A stretch of DNA of 64,000 nucleotides from Candidatus Iainarchaeum sp. GTDB taxonomy: Archaea; Iainarchaeota; Iainarchaeia; Iainarchaeales; DTGL01. Below the pieces are notes generated by a model. The model had not been told where the DNA came from, ran no database searches, and saw only the letters and a list, made by a program, of their open reading frames with translations. This document shows positions 1 through 40,696 of the stretch, in pieces. The stretch spans positions 298 to 64,297 of the forward strand of contig JAWANJ010000001.1 of NCBI GenBank assembly GCA_038895395.1. The letters run 5' to 3'. Within the stretch, counting starts at the first letter, position 1. Every line of letters begins with the position of its first letter. Position numbers and translations under genes: made by a program.

Positions 1-240
1 ATTGGTAAGGCAAAAACCTTTCAGACTATCTTTATTTGTGATGCCATCATTAACCCGATACTTCTTTGCAGGATAATGTGGAAAACTTCCACCACCATGA
101 GCTACTATGAGCCTTTTATATTTCAAAGTTGATCTTATTTCAGAGGCTAACCTTGCAATCATATCTGTTCTAGCTTTTTCCTTAATGCATTTGTTTGTTA
201 TTAGTGAACCGCCTAACTTAACCAAAACCAGTTCTTTCAA
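1..240 (-). CDS. ipk: isopentenyl phosphate kinase (amino-acid-kinase family), partial; C-terminus lies beyond the window start
   Basis: Manual minus-strand translation of 1..255 gives ...DILKELVLVKLGGSLITNK...LIVAHGGGSFPHYPAKKYRVNDG..., matching the IPK/amino-acid-kinase N-terminal motifs (LKLGGS, HGGGSFGH). No stop before position 1. The only start in frame is TTG at 240-238, which overlaps the TGA stop of the upstream gene (TTGA). Confidence 0.6.
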   Translation of the reverse strand, partial: MKELVLVKLGGSLITNKCIKEKARTDMIARLASEIRSTLKYKRLIVAHGGGSFPHYPAKKYRVNDGITNKDSLKGFCLTN

Positions 241-30048: not shown

Positions 30049-31236
30049 ATGAATAGTTTTCACGTTTTAATGTTAGGTTGGGAATTTCCACCATTCAAGT
30101 CAGGGGGTCTTGGCACTTATTTGTTGGGTTTCACAAAAGCATTAAACTCCCTAGGCGTTAAAATAACTTTCATTATGCCATATACTGGCAAAAGTTTAAA
30201 ATACGATTTCATTGACATCATACAGGCTGACGGTATTGAAATTTTTGGCATAAGCTCAGGCTTGACACCATACTTTGTAAAAGGTGTTGATGGTGAAAAT
30301 AGAACTTCTGTTAGTAGCGTGTATGGTTGGCGGTTTTTCGATGAGGTGAAATATTACACTCAAAGGGCAATAGCAATAGGATCTAAAATAGAATGTGATG
30401 TGATTCACTGCCATGATTGGATGACTTACATGGCAGGCATAGCGCTTAAGAAGATTCTGAAAAAGCCTCTGGTTGTGACAATACATAGCACAGAATATGA
30501 CCGCACTGGAAACCTTTTTCCCAATGCTGAAATAGTCAGTATTGAAAGACGGGGTCTTACCGAGGCAGATATGGTAATAACAGTGAGTGAATATGAAAAA
30601 AGGCAGATTATTGAAAAGTATGGCATTGAACCAAACAAAGTTGCTGTTGTTTATAACGCCATAGACCTTGAACAATATAAGCGCAAAAATATTGAGAAGT
30701 ATTTGAACGACAGAATTGTTCTTTTCGTTGGGAGGCTTACAGTACAAAAGGGCGTAGATTTTTTCATCGAAGCTGCAAAGAAGGTACTTGAAAAGAATAA
30801 AAGTGTGAGGTTTGTTATTGTTGGCTCCGGAGATCAAATGCCACATCTAATACAAAAAAGCATCAGCTTGGGAATAGCAGACAGAGTACATTTCGTTGGT
30901 TTTGAAAATGATGTTTCTAAGTATTATTCGATTGCTGATGTTTTTGTGATGCCAAGTGTTTCTGAACCATTTGGTTTAACTGCATTAGAAGCACTTGCAT
31001 GTGAAGTGCCTGTGATAATAAGTAAACAGAGTGGAGTTAGTGAAGTTATAAGGAACTGTTTAAAGGTTGATTTTTGGGACACTCAAGAGTTGGCTAACAA
31101 GATAATTGCAATGTTGTATTATCAACCACTGTATGAAGAATTGAAAGAAAGATCAAAAATGGAAATTTTGAAGTATAGAAGTTGGAGGGATGTCGCCATA
31201 GAATGCCTGGAAATTTATCGCTTAGTTGCAAGGTGA
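30049..31236 (+). CDS. glycosyltransferase, glycogen synthase-like (GT5/GT4, KxGGL type)
   Basis: N-terminal MLGWEFPPFKSGGLGTYL resembles the GlgA K-T-G-G-L motif. 395 aa GT-B fold. Confidence 0.65.
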   Translation: MNSFHVLMLGWEFPPFKSGGLGTYLLGFTKALNSLGVKITFIMPYTGKSLKYDFIDIIQADGIEIFGISSGLTPYFVKGVDGENRTSVSSVYGWRFFDEVKYYTQRAIAIGSKIECDVIHCHDWMTYMAGIALKKILKKPLVVTIHSTEYDRTGNLFPNAEIVSIERRGLTEADMVITVSEYEKRQIIEKYGIEPNKVAVVYNAIDLEQYKRKNIEKYLNDRIVLFVGRLTVQKGVDFFIEAAKKVLEKNKSVRFVIVGSGDQMPHLIQKSISLGIADRVHFVGFENDVSKYYSIADVFVMPSVSEPFGLTALEALACEVPVIISKQSGVSEVIRNCLKVDFWDTQELANKIIAMLYYQPLYEELKERSKMEILKYRSWRDVAIECLEIYRLVAR

Positions 31237-32440
31237 TATTTTGAAAAAAATATGTTTTTACTTTCAAGTGCACCAACCTATGCGCATAGGAAAATATTCT
31301 TTTTTTGATATTGGAACAGGTAAAAGTTACTTCGATGAAGAAAAGAACAGGGCGTATTTGGAACGCGTAGTAAAAAAATGCTATGGACCAGCAACTGCAC
31401 TAATAAATGAGCTTATTAATGAAACTGATGGTGCTTTCAAGGTTAATTTTAGTATTACAGGCACTTTAATTGAACAGCTAGAAAAATATTTTCCAAAAAT
31501 TCTTGAAAGCTTTATTGCAGTTGTTGAAACGGGTTGTGCGGAATTGTTTAATGAAACTTATTATCATTCACTTTCCTTTTTGATTTCAGAAAGGGAATTT
31601 AAAGAGCAGATAAAGCTTCACAGAAAAAAGATAAAGGCTGTTTTTGGTGTTAAACCCAAGGTATTTAGAAACACTGAGGCAGTATATAACAATGACATAG
31701 CTAAAATTGTTTCGAAACTTGGGTTTAAGGCTATTGTGACTGAGGGTAGTGAGAAGATATTAGGTTGGAGAAGCCCAAATTACTTGTATAAAGCAAAGGG
31801 AGAAGATATCTTACTTCTTTTAAGAAACTATAGGCTTAGTGATGACATTGCGTTTAGATTCTCTGAGAGAAGCTGGACGGAATATCCTTTGACAGCAGAT
31901 AAGTATGCATATTGGATAGCGGCCACACAAGGAGAATGTGTAAACATATTTATGGACTATGAAACCTTTGGTGAGCATCAGTGGCCTGAAACAGGAGTTT
32001 TTGATTTCTTAAGACATTTGCCAATGGAGATTTTAAAGTATCGTGACTGTGAATTTGCTTGTGCATCTGAAGTTATAAAGAAACTTGAACCAAAAGATGA
32101 GCTGGATGTTCCGTATTTTTTGTCATGGGCTGATATAGATAGAGACTTGTCAGCTTGGCTGGAAAACAGAATACAAAGGCATGCTTTCGAGGAGATCAGG
32201 GCTCTAGAAAAAGCAGTTAGGAAAAGCAAAAATCTGGATATTTTGCATAGCTGGCGCTTGCTGCAAACATCAGACCACTTTTATTATATGTGCACAAAGT
32301 GGTTTGCGGATGGCGATGTACACAAATATTTCAATCCTTACGAGACGCCTTATGATGCATATATAAATTATATTAATGTGCTAAACGATCTAAAGATGCG
32401 CTTAGGTATTAACGCCCAGCAGCAAGCTCATATGCGTTAA
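31226..32440 (+). CDS. glycoside hydrolase family 57 protein
   Basis: N-terminal FYFQVHQPMRI matches the GH57 HxHQP signature. 404 aa. Confidence 0.65.
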   Translation: MQGDILKKICFYFQVHQPMRIGKYSFFDIGTGKSYFDEEKNRAYLERVVKKCYGPATALINELINETDGAFKVNFSITGTLIEQLEKYFPKILESFIAVVETGCAELFNETYYHSLSFLISEREFKEQIKLHRKKIKAVFGVKPKVFRNTEAVYNNDIAKIVSKLGFKAIVTEGSEKILGWRSPNYLYKAKGEDILLLLRNYRLSDDIAFRFSERSWTEYPLTADKYAYWIAATQGECVNIFMDYETFGEHQWPETGVFDFLRHLPMEILKYRDCEFACASEVIKKLEPKDELDVPYFLSWADIDRDLSAWLENRIQRHAFEEIRALEKAVRKSKNLDILHSWRLLQTSDHFYYMCTKWFADGDVHKYFNPYETPYDAYINYINVLNDLKMRLGINAQQQAHMR

Positions 32441-34220
32441 GATAGTTTGTTATTAAATTTGACCAAGACAAGTTGTAACTCAACTGCTTTGCAACTATTT
32501 TTAAGTCACCACGTTCTCTTTTAGGAAGCATGTATATGTACTTCAGATATTCCACAAGCTCAGCCAAAGTTTTCTCGTAAGGTGTGTTTGCTCTTGACAG
32601 CACTTTTATTGCATTTTTTGCAAGATCAGTATTTAGATGGTTCTTTATGTATTGACCAAAACCGCTTAAATCTGTTGTAACTGCCGGTAGACCAAGTGCA
32701 ATGGTTTCTAAAGGTGTGTATCCCCAGGATTCATAATAGCTTGGAAATACTCCTAAATGGCAGCCCATTACTGCTTGATAATATTCAAGACCTAAAAGGC
32801 CATCAGCAGTACTAAGGTAGGTAGGATAATACAGCACTTTAACTTTATCTGTTTCCCTATTGAAAAGATTGTTTTTCTTTATTCTTGTGAGGATTTCATC
32901 ACTTTCATCGACTTCTAGCACACTTATTGGTGGCACTTCATTTTTTTCATGTTTTAGTTCAAACAACATTTTTTTAACTTTATATAAAAATTCGTCATCA
33001 AGCAGATTCTTACCTGTTGGGGGCTCACCTTTTGAAATGCTGTAATAAAGCCTGTTTTTTATTTTTCGTATTTCATCCTCAATTTCGTCCTCTAATCGCT
33101 CATACAATGCCATATGTTTCAGAAGCTCGATGTTTTTGCCTCTGTTAGGCGCTGGGACAAATATAAAAGCGAATATTGTTGTTGTGTTTTTAGTATCTTT
33201 TAACTCATTGTTTAATCGCCCCAAGGCGTCTATAAACAGGTCTATGCCTTTGTTTCTTACCTCATAGCGGCCTGAAAGGAAGTAAAACAGGCTATCTTCA
33301 ACGTTTATGTAATAATATGGTGCAAAGTAGTCAAGCACGAAACGTCTAATGATGTTTCTGTAGATAACATGGAGATTTGCAAGCTCTTCCATAACATAAA
33401 ATTTTTCTACGTTTAGGCCATTTGGGGTTAAAATATCAGGTCTTCTGCCAAGAATGTACTGAGATTCGTTAGCACAAGTCTCGGATACTGTAGTAAACAC
33501 AGTAGCTTTGTGAGCGCATGCTTTTTCTGTAAGATGTTTTGCTTGAACTCCATATTTATATGCACGTTCATTTGGCACTGTTTCATTTGCCTGTATCTTT
33601 GAGATTATTTCTTCGTGCAATGGCTCTCCTGATCCAGCAATGCACCTTCCAAGCACGGTTGCATGTGTTGTAAAAATAGTTTTTATTTCTGGTTTATAGT
33701 GCACTATGTGAAGAAGTGCGCCTCCCGATAGCCACTCATGACAATGAACTATGCATTTTTTTATGTCATGCTCTTTTGCAAAAACAACCGTAATCAATTT
33801 TTCTAATAATAGGCCAACTGCCTTACCCCAAACAATAGGTTCGTTGTAATCATCGCCCGTGCCCAGAGAGTCTATTTGATAAAGATCCCAAAATTCTCGT
33901 TTTATATCATTTGTCTTTGCCTTTAGTTCATTTGGATCAACTAATATGCACTTTGGTCTGCCAGGTACAAGCCAATGGCCAGAATAGCAGTTAATTCCAT
34001 ATGTTTTTTTCAGGTAATCGAATACTTCAGCAAATTCGGGCGATGGTGTTTCTTCTTCAAATTCAACAGCGGCGCTTCTTTTGAAATAAGGACCAATTGT
34101 AAAAAAGTTTTTCAGGGAATTTTTTGCTTCAGCAGCCTTTGTGGATAGGACAGTATATATTCCGCCTACTTTGTTAGAAACTTCCCATCCAACCTCAAAA
34201 ACAGTGAAATCTTTTTGCAT
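32409..34220 (-). CDS. glycogen synthase, eukaryote-like GT3 family
   Basis: N-terminus FEVGWEVSNKVGGIYTVLSTKA is the GT3 glycogen synthase signature (EVSWEVANKVGGIYTV). 603 aa. Confidence 0.8.
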   Translation of the reverse strand: MQKDFTVFEVGWEVSNKVGGIYTVLSTKAAEAKNSLKNFFTIGPYFKRSAAVEFEEETPSPEFAEVFDYLKKTYGINCYSGHWLVPGRPKCILVDPNELKAKTNDIKREFWDLYQIDSLGTGDDYNEPIVWGKAVGLLLEKLITVVFAKEHDIKKCIVHCHEWLSGGALLHIVHYKPEIKTIFTTHATVLGRCIAGSGEPLHEEIISKIQANETVPNERAYKYGVQAKHLTEKACAHKATVFTTVSETCANESQYILGRRPDILTPNGLNVEKFYVMEELANLHVIYRNIIRRFVLDYFAPYYYINVEDSLFYFLSGRYEVRNKGIDLFIDALGRLNNELKDTKNTTTIFAFIFVPAPNRGKNIELLKHMALYERLEDEIEDEIRKIKNRLYYSISKGEPPTGKNLLDDEFLYKVKKMLFELKHEKNEVPPISVLEVDESDEILTRIKKNNLFNRETDKVKVLYYPTYLSTADGLLGLEYYQAVMGCHLGVFPSYYESWGYTPLETIALGLPAVTTDLSGFGQYIKNHLNTDLAKNAIKVLSRANTPYEKTLAELVEYLKYIYMLPKRERGDLKIVAKQLSYNLSWSNLITNYLNAYELAAGR

Positions 34221-34287
34221 CTAATCGCCTTTCAATAGTAATTAAAATAATAAAGGTTAAAATAACTTTCATTTTAACAATTAGAAT

Positions 34288-36168
34288 GTGGTTTCACCGA
34301 TAAACAAAAATTCGGAATTGGGAAAATATTCTTATTTTTTGAGCAATAAGGATTGTTTTTTTCACAGATATTACGATACTGGTTTCAAGACAAAATGGAC
34401 TGGCTTTTGGTCCAATGGCAAAAAGTATATTGAATTTTTTGACTTTAAGGTTTTTGGAAAATATCTTTCAGAGTCAAATTGCATAAAAGCAACATATGAT
34501 TTTACGAAAGCAACTCATGTTCATGCTATTGATGATGGTGTTTTTATTCAATCTGTTTGGACCCCGCTTTCTGGAGCTAAACTAGTTGTAGAGCTCCAAA
34601 GTGCAAACAACAAAAATTTTGAAGCTGAGTTTGAGTTTGCCATTAACATACGAAAGCGAGAAGAAAATTGGCATGATCGCGATTATGTAGTAAAACAGGA
34701 TGAAAATGAAAATTGTATAAATGTTTCTTCTAGTTTGGGTCAAATAAATATTTGTGTTTCTGGAAGCGAAAGCCAGTTTGTGCCTTTGCATCAGTATTTT
34801 GACCATTATCCATCTGGGGAAAAACAGCGATATTTTTTGCCGGGCATACTGAAACTAAAGGGCACAACTGTACGAATATTGTTTTCTTTGGAGAATGAGT
34901 CAGGTTTTGGTGACAACGAGCTTTTAAGCAAAAGAAGCTTTTATCGACAGCTCACCAACTGCATAGAGTGTGATGACCCTTTGATCTCTGGGTTATACAA
35001 AAAAGCCATTTTAAACATGGAGCTGCTTTTTTGTGGTAACTGTTATTACGCGGGTTTGCCCTGGTTTTTGCAGTTTTGGGCAAGAGATATGTTTTGGAGC
35101 TTACCAGCTTTCTTGTATGCGGGTTTTTTAAATCGAGCTAAATCAGCATTAGAGGTTTTTTCAGATAAGGTTATCAATGGAAGAGTTCCAAATTATATCT
35201 ACGGAGATGAAGTAAATTACTCTTCCATTGACTCCAGCATAATGTTTATATCTGCTTTAAGGGATTATATTGCGTTTTCAGGAGACACGGATTTTTTAGA
35301 GAATAAAATCGACTTAGTTTGTGATATAATGCAGAGGCTTCTTGCAGTTACTGACAGCAGAGGGTTTATATCACATGATAGCAAAGAAAACGAAACTTGG
35401 ATGGACAGTCTAAATAGGTATGAAACTGCCATAGAAATACAAGCCCTTTTTGTAAAGGCCCTTTCAGATTTTTCTGAGCTTGTATTTTTGGCAAAAAAAC
35501 CAAGTGGTGCTGCTATGGCCTTAGCATTTGAGGCAGAGGGGCTTGCAAGAAGACAACAGCACTTATTTGAAAAAGTTTTTTACAACGATGGCAAGTATGC
35601 CGACAGAATATGCGGTGAGCAAAAAGATTTCTCTAAAAGGCCAAATGCGCTTGTGCCTATTATGTTGGGGTTAAGCAAGTTTGGAATCGAAGAGTTTGAA
35701 AAGAGCGATATTTTATGCGAAAAAGGTGTAATGAGTCTTTCAAGTGAAAACAATGGATTTGATAGTGCTTCGTATCACAACGGCCAGGCATGGTCTCTTT
35801 GCACTGGTTGGCTTGCATGTGCGGAGTTTGCTATGAATCGGGTTGAAAAAGGCTATGAAATACTTAAGATCATTGATGATTACACTTACGGTGACACGCC
35901 TGGCTGCATAGGAGAATCATGGAATAGCAAAACGTTTGAGCGTATGGGGTGTAATATCCAACTTTGGGGCGCAGCACTTGCTATAAGAGCTATAGATGAG
36001 TTTATGCTTGGGATAAAACCATATGCTCCACGTCAAGAGATAGAAGTTTGCCCAAGGTTACCATCAAGTGTTGGATATGTTAAAAGGACTATAAATTTGG
36101 GTGGAAAAGAAACAAGCATCATTGTTAAGAAACAAGGCACATCAGTGAAAGTAGGCCTTTCACGTTAG
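34288..36168 (+). CDS. glycogen debranching enzyme / amylo-alpha-1,6-glucosidase (six-hairpin GDE C-terminal domain)
   Basis: 626 aa. GDE_C-like (alpha/alpha)6 region (…LPWFLQFWARDMFWSLPAF…). GTG start. Confidence 0.7.
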   Translation: MVSPINKNSELGKYSYFLSNKDCFFHRYYDTGFKTKWTGFWSNGKKYIEFFDFKVFGKYLSESNCIKATYDFTKATHVHAIDDGVFIQSVWTPLSGAKLVVELQSANNKNFEAEFEFAINIRKREENWHDRDYVVKQDENENCINVSSSLGQINICVSGSESQFVPLHQYFDHYPSGEKQRYFLPGILKLKGTTVRILFSLENESGFGDNELLSKRSFYRQLTNCIECDDPLISGLYKKAILNMELLFCGNCYYAGLPWFLQFWARDMFWSLPAFLYAGFLNRAKSALEVFSDKVINGRVPNYIYGDEVNYSSIDSSIMFISALRDYIAFSGDTDFLENKIDLVCDIMQRLLAVTDSRGFISHDSKENETWMDSLNRYETAIEIQALFVKALSDFSELVFLAKKPSGAAMALAFEAEGLARRQQHLFEKVFYNDGKYADRICGEQKDFSKRPNALVPIMLGLSKFGIEEFEKSDILCEKGVMSLSSENNGFDSASYHNGQAWSLCTGWLACAEFAMNRVEKGYEILKIIDDYTYGDTPGCIGESWNSKTFERMGCNIQLWGAALAIRAIDEFMLGIKPYAPRQEIEVCPRLPSSVGYVKRTINLGGKETSIIVKKQGTSVKVGLSR

Positions 36169-36211: not shown

Positions 36212-37108
36212 ATGGGTATGAACCAAACAAATGAGAACAAGGAAAATATTGGAAACATAGTTGAAAAATATGTTGAGAACTTCAAAAGAGAACTGATTGT
36301 TGGTGGTTTTTCCAATAGGACCATTAAAATGTATCTGCTATATATCCGAGAATTTCTTGAGTTTATAAAAAAAGACCCATTGCTTGCAACTCGAGAGGAT
36401 GTTATAGCATACATGGCACACAAAAAAGAAAATAAGGCCACTGATTCTACGATGTGTTTGGTTTATTCTGCATTGAGACATTTCTTTAAAGAATATTTAA
36501 AAAGCGATGTGATGGAAGATATAAAGAGGCCAAAAAAGGGGACAAAGTTACCAGTTGTGATGACTAAAGAAGAGGTTATACGGATGATAAATGCTGCTGA
36601 AAGAAAAAAAGACAGACTGATAATGATGCTTCTTTACTCTAGCGGTATGCGTGTTAGCGAGGTAACAAAGCTGAAAATAAATGATATTAATTTTGCTGAT
36701 AGAACAGCAATAGTGCGCGGCGGTAAAGGGAATAAGGATAGAATAGTAATCTTGTCTGAGTCTTGGTTAAAAGATTTGAGTGATTATTTGAAAAAAAGAA
36801 AGGCAAAGACAGAATATGTTTTTTCAGATTATTTGGGCAGACCAATTTCAGTGGATACTATTCAGAGAATTGTAAGAAAGGCCAGAATTAAAGCAGGTAT
36901 CGAAAAAAATGTGACACCACACAGTTTTAGACATACATTTGCTACACACCTTCTCGAGCGTGGTGAAAACATTAGAAAAATACAGGAGCTTTTGGGTCAT
37001 AGCAACTTATCTACAACGCAGATATATACAAAAGTTTCTGTAGAGGAATTAAAGAAGGTCAAAAGCCCGTTGGACAATTTAGAAAAATTTGATAAATGCA
37101 ATGGATAA
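36212..37108 (+). CDS. xerA: tyrosine recombinase, XerA/XerC/XerD family
   Basis: C-terminal catalytic region HSFRHTFATHLLERGENIRKIQELLGHSNLSTTQIYTKV (HxxR...H...Y) and the N-terminal SAM-like core-binding domain. Confidence 0.85.
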   Translation: MGMNQTNENKENIGNIVEKYVENFKRELIVGGFSNRTIKMYLLYIREFLEFIKKDPLLATREDVIAYMAHKKENKATDSTMCLVYSALRHFFKEYLKSDVMEDIKRPKKGTKLPVVMTKEEVIRMINAAERKKDRLIMMLLYSSGMRVSEVTKLKINDINFADRTAIVRGGKGNKDRIVILSESWLKDLSDYLKKRKAKTEYVFSDYLGRPISVDTIQRIVRKARIKAGIEKNVTPHSFRHTFATHLLERGENIRKIQELLGHSNLSTTQIYTKVSVEELKKVKSPLDNLEKFDKCNG

Positions 37109-37227
37109 AAACAGCACAGAGGGTATTGTTCCGATAATGAAGCTCTAGCAAAAGTTTTAGGTGAGAAGATTGATTATAAAGATTTGGATCATAAACACAA
37201 AATTTAAATATTAAAAAAACATATATT

Positions 37228-37521
37228 ATGTGGTTCTTAGTTTTATTTATGAAGGGAGGGTTTGAGATGACTGTGAGGCTTTCAGAGCTTTTTGGAAAGG
37301 AGATATATACTGTTGACGGGGAAAGAAAAGGCAAGGTTTTTGACCTTGTAATAAATTTAGAAAAAGGACGTATAGAAACCATAACTACTGAACCTTTAAG
37401 AGCAAGTTCTAAAGCAGAGGCTAGAAAGATAATAACTGAAAAAAGCATACCTTATAGTAAAGTCATATCTGCAAAAGACATATTGTTGATTTCTACAAGA
37501 CAGGAAGTTTCAAAGCAATAA
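37228..37521 (+). CDS. PRC-barrel domain protein
   Basis: 97 aa. LSELFGKEIYTVDGERKGKVFDLVINLEKGRI is typical PRC-barrel. Confidence 0.5.
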   Translation: MWFLVLFMKGGFEMTVRLSELFGKEIYTVDGERKGKVFDLVINLEKGRIETITTEPLRASSKAEARKIITEKSIPYSKVISAKDILLISTRQEVSKQ

Positions 37522-37690
37522 CTCTTTGTTAAGGTTTCAACAATTGCATCTACGTTACTAACGTTAAAATGCTACCATGGTTTAGTAGCCAATTCTAAAA
37601 AGATTGTTATGTACAAAGCAAAGTTTTTAATTTTTTTCAAATATTTTTATACATAAACATCGTCAAAACAATTGTTTTTTATTATCGGAA

Positions 37691-38275
37691 GTGCAGAGGG
37701 GGTCTAAAACGTTAAAAGCACATTTCTTACAATATAAGTTTATTGTGCCAAAAACACTAAGCAGGTCTTCTTACACCTATCAAAAACTTTTTAGAGCGCT
37801 TTACGGTTATACTCAAGTAGTAAATAAATCAAATGGGAAAAGGTATAGGTATCATAGAAAAGGAATACTTTCTGATGTTCCTTTTATAAGGCCTTCTAAA
37901 AATTCCCTTATAATACCAACTGATGCTTTGCAAAAATTGATTAACTTTTTTAATACTGGTGAAAATCCCGCTCATCGATGGACTGCTAAAGGTGATTGGA
38001 AGGCGGTTTATTACTTAAGTGACAAACAAATTAGTGAACAAAGTGTCGCTAGAGCATTTGAGCAAGTTTTGGATAGGCAATGGGTAAACTATGGCGGTGA
38101 AAAAATGCTTTTGGAAGATTTCTTATCAAAATTTGTGCCAAAAAAAGAAGAATTAAAAAATAAAAAAATAGTGCAATTCTGCAATTACTTAACTTCCCAC
38201 GAATGGTTTGCTAAAAGTTATGTATATTCTGACAGACTTAAAAAATTCAAAACTCTCTGCGAAAATCTATCTTAA
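37691..38275 (+). CDS. hypothetical protein (194 aa)
   Basis: ORF only. No motif recognised. Confidence 0.3.
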   Translation: MQRGSKTLKAHFLQYKFIVPKTLSRSSYTYQKLFRALYGYTQVVNKSNGKRYRYHRKGILSDVPFIRPSKNSLIIPTDALQKLINFFNTGENPAHRWTAKGDWKAVYYLSDKQISEQSVARAFEQVLDRQWVNYGGEKMLLEDFLSKFVPKKEELKNKKIVQFCNYLTSHEWFAKSYVYSDRLKKFKTLCENLS

Positions 38276-38278
38276 TGC

Positions 38279-38728
38279 TTATTTGCTTACAAGCTTTTTT
38301 ATTAACTTTTTTTCTTTTTCTTTAGAGTACTCATCAGCATTATTTTCAGATACTGCTATTTCGAATAAGCATTCCTTTTTTCTCCACTTCATCCTACCAC
38401 CTACGCTATGTGTCTCTACTAAGTTAATGTCTACGAGTGTTTTCAAATATGGGTAAAGACTTCTTTCGTTTTTATAGTCAACACCAAAAAGCTCTTTTAT
38501 TCTTCGTCTTATTTCTGGCATGTCAACCCATTCATCAAAGCCAAGTACATTAACTAAATGGTATGCTTGTGTGTTCTCGTTAAAAGACAAAAAATCCCAT
38601 AGGGACCTTATTTCTTTTTTTACTTCTTCTTCAGGTATGCTTTTGTAAATTCGCTCTTCTTCTGTAGCCCAATTTTTTATCCTACTGCCTATTTTTATAA
38701 GAAATCTTATCAATCTTTTCATTACCAT
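38279..38728 (-). CDS. hypothetical protein (149 aa), possible winged-helix
   Basis: ORF only. Weak wHTH-like C-terminal segment. Confidence 0.3.
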   Translation of the reverse strand: MVMKRLIRFLIKIGSRIKNWATEEERIYKSIPEEEVKKEIRSLWDFLSFNENTQAYHLVNVLGFDEWVDMPEIRRRIKELFGVDYKNERSLYPYLKTLVDINLVETHSVGGRMKWRKKECLFEIAVSENNADEYSKEKEKKLIKKLVSK

Positions 38729-39075
38729 ATTTATAGTTAATACTGTATTTACTTAAAAATTTTACTGTAAAAACTAGTAATGTAAGTAATTACAAGTAAT
38801 GATAAAAAGAAAAAAATTACACAGTTTATTCGTCTTTTTTATGATCCCTAACCATAACAAACTTAAAAATCTGTTTGTATTTTATTTTGTAACTTATTTT
38901 TTTACATATTTGAAAAAATGCAAAAAATTTGGTTTTGTAAAAATTAATTAAAAATTACATAGATTAACCACCAAAACATTTTGCAATTTTAATTAAAACC
39001 ATAATTAGCGTGAATTACAAACTACAATAATGAATAATTAAAATTTAGAAATTTCGCTTAGGTGAAATTTTAACT

Positions 39076-39150
39076 TAGCGGGGGATGGATTTGAACCATC
39101 GACCTTCGGGTTATGAGCCCGACGGGCACTCCAAGCTGCCCCACCCCGCT
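39076..39150 (-). tRNA. initiator tRNA-Met (CAT)
   Basis: Reverse complement folds as a cloverleaf: acceptor AGCGGGG/CCCCGCT (A1:U72), anticodon arm TCGGG-CTCATAA-CCCGA with three G:C pairs, T arm GATGG-TTCAAAT-CCATC, discriminator A. Confidence 0.85.
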
Positions 39151-39325
39151 TTTGTTTTTAAATAAAACATCTTTTTGTTTTTCTTTTTAAAATATTTTCA
39201 AATTTATTTTATAACAACCATCAGAGATTTATTAAAACTATTTTTTCTAAAATAAATGTTTTTAGGCGATATTTTTTTAAATCAAATCTTTATTATCTTG
39301 TGTAAAACTTGTCCAATATTTTGTG

Positions 39326-40586: not shown

Positions 40587-40587
40587 T

Positions 40588-40678
40588 GGGGCTGTGGTGT
40601 AGTCTGGTCTAGCATACCAGCTTTGGGAAATTAAATTCAAAAAAGCTGGAGACCCGGGTTCAAATCCCAGCAGCCCCA
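40588..40678 (+). tRNA. tRNA-Pro (TGG) with a ~16-nt intron after position 37
   Basis: Acceptor GGGGCTG/CAGCCCC. Anticodon stem CCAGC/GCTGG flanks TTTGGG + aaattaaattcaaaaa + A. T arm CCGGG-TTCAAAT-CCCAG has one C·A mismatch. Confidence 0.7.
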
Positions 40679-40696
40679 ATAAATTGAGGTGAGTTT

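Follow-up and report, generated by a model that had tools for sequence, protein, structure and literature searches.

Does a tyrosine recombinase gene that lies close to the 3′ side of an initiator tRNA gene mark an integrated mobile element, the surroundings of a dif site, or the ordinary chromosome of its host? The question is raised by positions 36212-39325 of a 64-kb stretch of DNA from Candidatus Iainarchaeum sp. (contig JAWANJ010000001.1), here called the window, to which all coordinates refer. The initial annotation, read from the letters alone, had seen in this interval either an integrase with its cargo next to a tRNA or the chromosomal XerA with a dif site nearby, and all of the elements it had named were recovered in place. 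Our analysis indicates that the interval is very probably a vertically inherited part of the core chromosome of a Candidatus Iainarchaeum-like DPANN archaeon, containing the housekeeping XerA, and that it is not a mobile element. The nearest relatives of the window are metagenome-assembled genomes (MAGs) of Candidatus Iainarchaeum (Diapherotrites, DPANN), and the window carries archaeal markers such as the archaeal signal recognition particle (SRP) RNA, TFE, aTrm56 and RadA.

The XerA recombinase and its conserved neighbourhood

The recombinase was found to be full-length and catalytically intact, as the initial annotation had it. Its 298 aa comprise a SAM-like core-binding domain (Phage_int_SAM_4, PF13495, E = 9e-14) and a catalytic domain (Phage_integrase, PF00589, E = 1.3e-48), which is the two-domain architecture of tyrosine recombinases, and alignment to the XerA of P. 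abyssi revealed the complete catalytic set of R147, K172, H237, R240, H263 and Y272. The NCBIfam equivalog model for archaeal XerA (NF040815, recomb_XerA_Arch) was matched at 281.1 bits against a cut-off of 220, while the protein fell below the cut-off of each of the XerC, XerD and integron-integrase models. The top match in the PDB was P. abyssi XerA (4A8E, E = 1.9e-61), aligned end to end over residues 18-283, followed by a second solved relative, the XerA of T. acidophilum (5HXY, E = 2.5e-43). Because the equivalog model, the end-to-end alignment with 4A8E and the six catalytic residues agree, the protein is, by its sequence, the housekeeping archaeal XerA, a Xer-type recombinase and not the integrase of a mobile element. 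An exact-sequence look-up of the protein returned no record, and no second tyrosine recombinase is encoded within the 64-kb window. By homology, XerA would resolve chromosome dimers by site-specific recombination at dif, a site that probably lies elsewhere in the genome.

Two xerA genes of other loci (L065:10001-12091 and L067:902-2932) are interrupted, between ...TPHTLRH and SYATHLLE, by an in-frame stretch of about 415 aa. This stretch has Cys as its first residue and His-Asn as its last two, with Ser next after it, and carries a LAGLIDADG-type motif (LAGFYDAEGN), so that by sequence it looks like an intein placed within the catalytic HxxR-H motif of XerA.

Related genomes were scanned with one genome per species, which yielded 71 loci with up to ±10 kb each, and synteny was scored by tblastn of the window proteins against these loci. 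The genes for XerA, a PRC-barrel protein and two proteins here called orf194 and orf149 were found in one order and orientation in 42 Iainarchaeia loci besides the window; XerA identity in these spans about 50% to 86%. In another seven loci the same order holds as far as the contig goes. TFE and then Trm56 follow in the syntenic loci wherever the contig is long enough, and for 32 of the 42 ARAGORN placed a minus-strand tRNA-Met in the gap that separates orf149 from TFE. Across the loci XerA and its neighbours lose identity in parallel, as expected under vertical descent. The left flank, with its glycogen genes, is common only to the two closest genomes (L001 and L002), so that xerA forms the left edge of the conserved block. 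The gene heads a class-wide block of the PRC-barrel gene, orf194 and then the convergent orf149. The XerA loci of Aenigmarchaeota have other neighbours and do not contain the PRC/orf194/orf149 block, and the xerA neighbourhood is not mentioned in a gene-neighbourhood survey of PRC-barrel proteins (bioRxiv 10.1101/2023.03.28.534520). Gene identities, conservation, synteny, the absence of attachment (att) repeats and motif positions were computed here, while the activity of XerA, autoregulation by orf149, termination at the spacer repeats and any division role of the PRC protein are inferred only.

An integrated element or its remnant would mean that an integrase of the lambda or pNOB8 type had carried cargo into the 3′ end of the initiator tRNA gene. 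In its favour, 2 kb separate the recombinase gene from the 3′ side of the tRNA, family libraries do not annotate the genes in between, and the interval includes an AT-rich stretch. No duplication of any part of the tRNA that could serve as attL/attR was detected within the window: three probes spanning the whole tRNA, with up to 3 mismatches allowed, recovered only the tRNA itself, in agreement with the earlier inspection by eye, which had found no direct repeat of its 3′ half, and a repeat finder reported no tRNA-derived repeat family. The whole segment, tRNA and spacer included, occupies the same place in 42 genomes in which XerA identity falls to about 50%, and the 37.1-39.0 kb portion is colinear in all 42 loci, with no presence/absence polymorphism. 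The recombinase itself is a XerA equivalog, and viral affinities are limited to one weak match. Among the PHROGs, XerA retrieved generic integrase families only and orf149 a single uncharacterised family (E = 4.4e-4), and orf194, which has no structural match, gave none to viral proteins in a fold search of BFVD. The integrated-element layout is therefore refuted, because the segment as a whole is syntenic without att duplication, the outcome that the initial annotation had itself named as decisive, and we regard such an origin of the interval as very unlikely.

The features of the interval and its flanks are as follows, with the strand and, where given, the basis of each assignment.

32409-34220, minus strand: eukaryote-type glycogen synthase (PF05693)
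34288-36168, plus strand: debranching-enzyme homologue (amylo-alpha-1,6-glucosidase)
36212-37108, plus strand: xerA, archaeal Xer-type tyrosine recombinase, 298 aa (Pfam, NCBIfam, structure match)
37119-37138, minus strand: M′ element (position-weight pattern shared with M)
37203-37233, plus strand: promoter of the PRC gene, with the TATA box TTTAAATA at 37203-37210 and the TTATGTGG motif at 37226-37233 (sequence reading)
37267-37521, plus strand: PRC-barrel protein, 84 aa, in an open reading frame (ORF) listed as 37228-37521 (Pfam PF05239)
37607-37656, plus strand: TTATGTAC at 37607-37614 and ATACATAA at 37649-37656, 5′ of orf194 (motif conservation)
37681-37704, plus strand: M element ATTATCGGAAGTGCAGAGGGGGTC, directly before or overlapping the start of orf194
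37691-38275, plus strand: orf194 (conserved in homologues, no family match)
38279-38728, minus strand: orf149, predicted winged-helix protein (AlphaFold model and Foldseek)
38729-38810, minus strand: orf149 promoter and predicted operator (motif conservation)
38811-39075, minus strand: distal AT-rich spacer (low GC, oriented repeats)
39076-39150, minus strand: initiator tRNA-Met (CAU) (ARAGORN; Rfam tRNA, 62.5 bits)
Beyond the tRNA, minus strand: TFE and aTrm56

Directly 5′ of xerA lies a glycogen-metabolism cluster (window 30049-36168) with a GT4 glycosyltransferase-like ORF, a possible GH57 ORF, the glycogen synthase and the amylo-alpha-1,6-glucosidase homologue.

Lineage-specific proteins and the motifs of their spacers

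The PRC-barrel protein named in the initial annotation is present, with the PRC domain (PF05239, E = 2e-9) at residues 16-91 of the listed ORF, and its start was corrected to the ATG at 37267, which stands behind a GGGAGGG ribosome-binding site. The protein is 60-93% identical over the 42 syntenic loci and matches the solved archaeal PRC-barrel proteins 8QZO and 8ONW weakly (E = 1.4e-3). The haloarchaeal division proteins CdpB belong to the PRC-barrel proteins (bioRxiv 10.1101/2023.03.28.534520), and the sequence suggests that the protein of the window is possibly CdpB-like and division-related.

Several non-coding motifs were found around this gene. Either TTTAAATA or TTTATATA occupies the position of its TATA box in all loci, and the TTATGTGG motif falls near the expected transcription start. 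Motifs of the TTATGTAT type, an 8-mer that resembles the inner part of Xer arms, occur in 46 copies over 43 xerA-PRC spacers and in one orientation throughout, while 39-41 of the 43 PRC-orf194 spacers contain ATACATAA, a figure that reached at most 12 in shuffled sequence. In most relatives the two combine into a single palindrome, TTATGTAT-N7-ATACATAA, located 30-45 nt 5′ of orf194 with the 7-nt spacing dominant, and in the clade of the window the halves, TTATGTAC and ATACATAA, stand about 35-45 nt apart. The TTAT ends of the palindrome face away from each other, opposite to their arrangement in dif.

A further element, M, stands just before the start of orf194 and has an asymmetric consensus of about 18 nt, ATTA-S-Y-GGAAGT-R-N-GGGG, containing a Shine-Dalgarno-like GGAAGTG and a G-string; it is conserved in nucleotides irrespective of the reading frame of the start codon. 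M′ (GAGGGTATTG-TTCCGATAAT) is a reverse-complement copy of M, located 10-100 nt past the stop codon of xerA in related genomes and at the equivalent position in most loci, so that an inverted M′/M pair is seen in about 35 loci; in the clade of the window the G-string of M′ is degenerate. M and M′ are identical at 16.7 of 26 positions within a locus and at 15.8 of 26 between loci, with slight locus-specific covariation. Pairing of M′ with M in RNA, as a processing stem, was considered less likely, because the two share one consensus with little locus-specific covariation, and a protein-binding site or a leader is likelier. The simplest reading of these sequences would be that M, M′ and the TTATGTAT motifs are shared regulatory sites together with a 5′ leader.

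The two convergent ORFs that the initial annotation had found unrecognisable are indeed convergent and match no family library, but they are not orphans, with 381 homologues detected for orf194 and 252 for orf149. Those of orf194, about 195 aa in length and mostly from Diapherotrites MAGs, contain no Pfam domain, and a 47-sequence alignment showed 44 invariant columns, so that by sequence orf194 is a conserved Iainarchaeia-specific gene. The AlphaFold model (predicted local distance difference test, pLDDT, 91; predicted template modelling score, pTM, 0.86) combines an N-terminal domain of ferredoxin-like fold with a helical bundle at the C-terminus and has no known structural relative. The ATG start of other genomes is ACG in the window (37691-37712), where the start is the GTG at 37691, inside M, or a GTG downstream, and NCBI annotates the near-identical protein of a MAG as 176 aa. 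A profile search over 1.8 billion representatives recovered only 93 proteins, among them stand-alone relatives of the N-terminal domain of about 100-135 aa (P0290-P0332) that lack a Pfam family. These relatives share the pattern ERNKFYRGLYGWKQ...Y.Y.R.GLL..PH and make up an uncharacterised family of small proteins.

The alignment of orf149 contains 27 invariant columns. Foldseek matched its AlphaFold model (pLDDT 81) to the winged-helix proteins Fur, PadR, RosR and F-93, while at the sequence level PadR and RosR were matched weakly (18 bits for Pfam PadR, with a cut-off of 27); on the strength of the model, orf149 is a winged-helix DNA-binding protein. On its coding strand, the TATA-like TTTTTAAG, a TTAAAA(A) box, ends 24 nt before the ATG, and because of this spacing the mRNA is probably leaderless. 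Around the box, TTAC/GTAA palindromes were observed as GTATTTAC, TTACTGTAA and GTAATTAC (38786-38793), and a TTACGGTAA element also belongs to the promoter pattern. Of 33 orf149-tRNA spacers, 32 contain GTAATTAC, against at most 15 in shuffles; about 40 of 43 loci have one to three copies no more than 130 bp from the orf149 start, and the palindrome is nearly absent from the rest of the 710 kb of loci. The first ~100 bp of the spacer, beside orf149, are also its only well-aligned part among the three closest genomes. From this layout we infer an operator around a core promoter, with the orf149 protein as the obvious candidate to bind it, and most likely orf149 would bind the GTAATTAC-type palindromes on either side of the TATA box and so repress its own leaderless promoter. 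Scans for sigma-70 promoters and hairpin terminators gave hits at chance level, and their models are not applicable to archaea.

The sharp rise in AT content noted by the initial annotation was confirmed, with 19.3% GC over the 347 bp of 38729-39075 against 36.5% for the window. The tRNA-Met, whose 3′ end faces this stretch, is intact and single-copy within the window, and because it has A1:U72 and a GGG/CCC anticodon stem, read from the sequence, it is assigned as an archaeal initiator tRNA. The orf149-tRNA spacer measures 270-516 bp across the loci, with a GC content below that of its own locus in 32 of 33. Its distal sequence is poorly conserved and in many clades carries short repeats that read CACTCACTTTTT on the strand of the tRNA and orf149; the window counterpart is AAAAATTACAYAG in two copies (38812 and 38950), equal to CTRTGTAATTTTT on the transcribed strand. 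In the spacers of other clades AAAGT[GA]AG[TC] was counted 40 times forward and 0 times in reverse, at a density of 2.0 per kb against 0.02-0.03 per kb elsewhere (about 70-100-fold). The repeat AAAAAGTGAGTG occurs in one orientation at L025:12595-12825 and in the same region of L018, with up to five copies about 52 nt apart, the last of which abuts the 3′ end of the tRNA in L025. TRF reported nothing on the L025 spacer, where only the 12-nt cores repeat, and Rfam, at gathering and E-value thresholds, found nothing but the tRNA in the intergenic DNA of the interval. Judged from these sequences, the distal spacer is probably a zone of termination and insulation between the tRNA and the co-directional orf149, in which oriented, oligo-T-ended repeats would stop read-through from the highly transcribed initiator tRNA into orf149; the repeats may instead be protein-binding iterons.

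A 93-nt tRNA-like gene at window 40587-40679 abuts tRNA-Lys(UUU) with zero spacer. It scores 50.9 bits with Rfam tRNA, ARAGORN assigns it no anticodon, and it is probably an intron-containing tRNA.

Terminus, origin and inversion as alternative readings

If the interval were a terminus or dif-proximal region, it would contain or adjoin the substrate of XerA, for which the TTATGTAT-type motifs, which resemble the Xer arms of P. abyssi (TTATATCTAAA) and E. coli (TTATGTTAAAT), are one candidate. The cumulative GC skew of the window peaks at ~38 kb, where orf194 and orf149 converge, and TTATGTAT(A), strongly enriched in the spacers on both sides of the PRC gene, agrees with how known Xer arms begin (Thermococcales consensus TTATATSHMAA, PMC4640148). 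The skew peak, however, tracks local gene orientation, with convergent genes and purine-rich coding strands, and is not reproduced in relatives; in the non-syntenic left flank of 33 loci the plus strand holds a mean fraction of 0.52 of the coding bases, and such unbiased orientation and skew imply that there is no conserved replichore boundary here. The arms of the conserved palindrome also face opposite to those of dif, and its halves are separated by the wide spacing given above in the window. For comparison, the dif consensus of Thermococcales is WTKDSMTATAA-TVDDYM-TTATATSHMAA (PMC4640148, Table 2). We searched for all 11-(4..10)-11 inverted repeats with at least 9/11 complementarity, checking conservation in the two closest genomes, and found no conserved non-coding one within ±10 kb, the 11-6-11 dif-like type of the initial annotation included; only matches in coding regions were conserved. 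The sole inverted repeat of the window with an ATAA-N6-TTAT core lies inside a coding gene, and a fuzzy search for ATACATAA-N5-8-TTATGTAT returned noise only. Known archaeal dif sites do not stand beside xerA, that of Thermococcales not adjoining it (PMC2958812), which weighs against this reading and, for the same reason, means that a missing nearby dif does not argue against the identity of XerA. Of the suggestion of a chromosomal XerA with a dif site nearby, the XerA half is thus supported by the equivalog model and the structure match, while the dif half is unsupported within ±10 kb, and a dif site or terminus at this place appears quite improbable.

Two other readings take the inverted M′/M pair as their starting point. 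In one, the interval is a replication origin or chromosome-maintenance locus, with M′ and M as sites for an initiator, similar to the origin recognition box (ORB), flanking AT-rich DNA, and with orf149, orf194 or both as lineage-specific origin or segregation factors. M shares AGTGGAA and the G-string with the euryarchaeal ORB consensus GTTCCAGTGGAAAC-AAA----GGGGG (PMC1868953), the inverted two-copy arrangement is conserved in most loci, AT-rich stretches and short oriented repeats lie nearby, and a predicted winged-helix DNA-binding protein is encoded in the block. Yet M lacks the left (TTCC) half of the ORB dyad, a half that is invariant in the mini-ORBs of Pyrococcus (PMC1904270), its gap to the G-string is 2-3 nt instead of 7, a protein-coding gene lies between M′ and M, and M overlaps the ribosome-binding region of orf194 and may be a plain 5′ leader. 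Neither the window nor any of the 71 loci has an orc1/cdc6-like ORF within ±10 kb, a search of ORFs with a Walker-A motif returning only KaiC-like, RFC and SRP54 proteins, and no consistent divergence of gene orientation or skew was seen across the loci; we consider an origin here unlikely. In the other, an invertible switch, a XerA-like recombinase would flip the PRC segment between M′ and M, as might be suggested by inverted repeats of about 18 nt around a segment of 0.5-1 kb directly 3′ of a tyrosine recombinase gene. The orientation of the PRC gene is identical in the 42 syntenic loci and the window, M has neither the internal dyad nor the spacer that tyrosine recombinases need, and M/M′ identity within a locus is barely above that between loci, indicating no recombinational homogenisation. 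Inversion was rejected for the invariant orientation and is extremely unlikely.

Vertically inherited core chromosome with a housekeeping XerA thus remains the preferred reading, and several points weigh against it. A second xerA may lie outside the 64-kb window, no dif site for XerA was identified within ±10 kb, and the reading leaves the strongly conserved non-coding M/M′ and TTATGTAT motifs around the PRC gene without an explanation. In addition, L042 and L047, which are Iainarchaeia-like and have enough flank, as well as L067, contain a XerA homologue without the block; therefore, the linkage of the block is not universal, or paralogues of XerA exist.

A more far-reaching proposal is that the class-wide linkage of xerA with a CdpB-like PRC gene, two lineage-specific proteins, one of them DNA-binding, and three sets of positionally conserved motifs (the inverted pair of ORB-like 18-mers, the Xer-arm-like TTATGTAT repeats with their palindrome, and the GTAATTAC operators) marks a chromosome-maintenance control region, possibly a replication origin distant from orc1, or a site at which the resolution of dimers is coupled to cell division in archaea, which have no FtsK. 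We regard this as rather unlikely. Since the control of Xer in archaea without FtsK is an open question (PMC8371274), the conserved linkage of xerA and a PRC-barrel gene offers a testable, speculative lead on it. The housekeeping XerA is itself ordinary, and the xerA-PRC-orf194-orf149 module with its motifs is a modest lead. Overall, a tally of integration events at the initiator tRNA should leave this locus out; what the analysis defines is a conserved Iainarchaeia block with two uncharacterised, strongly constrained protein families and, beside xerA, a putative division gene whose surrounding non-coding motifs are precisely placed.

Comparison with known systems

The tyrosine-recombinase superfamily groups XerA with the pNOB8 and SNJ2 integrases (PMC8371274), so that the protein of the window belongs to the same broad superfamily as these tRNA-targeting enzymes, and both are found near the 3′ end of a tRNA. 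Unlike elements of the pNOB8/SNJ2 type, the locus of the window lacks an att duplication, is not polymorphic in presence or absence, and carries no cargo of a mobile element. Archaeal ORB and mini-ORB elements have, like M, AGTGGAA followed by a G-string and occur as an inverted pair near AT-rich DNA (PMC1868953, PMC1904270), but M differs from them in the missing TTCC half, the spacing of the G-string, the absence of an adjacent orc1/cdc6 and the gene enclosed by the pair. A single PRC-barrel domain of about 85 aa is common to CdpB1-3/CdvA-type proteins and the PRC protein of the window, while the sequence similarity is marginal (the E-value given above) and neither SepF nor FtsZ is encoded next to the gene of the window. 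Regulators of the PadR/RosR/Fur type resemble orf149 and its promoter in the winged-helix fold and the promoter palindrome, whereas orf149 scores below every Pfam threshold and has extra helices at its N- and C-termini. The closest counterparts are the XerA proteins of P. abyssi (PAB0255, 4A8E) and T. acidophilum (5HXY), which share with the recombinase of the window the two-domain architecture and the R-K-H-R-H-Y set and are likewise chromosomally encoded and vertically inherited; in contrast to these characterised XerA, the xerA of Iainarchaeia stands in fixed linkage with a PRC-barrel gene and two genes specific to the lineage.

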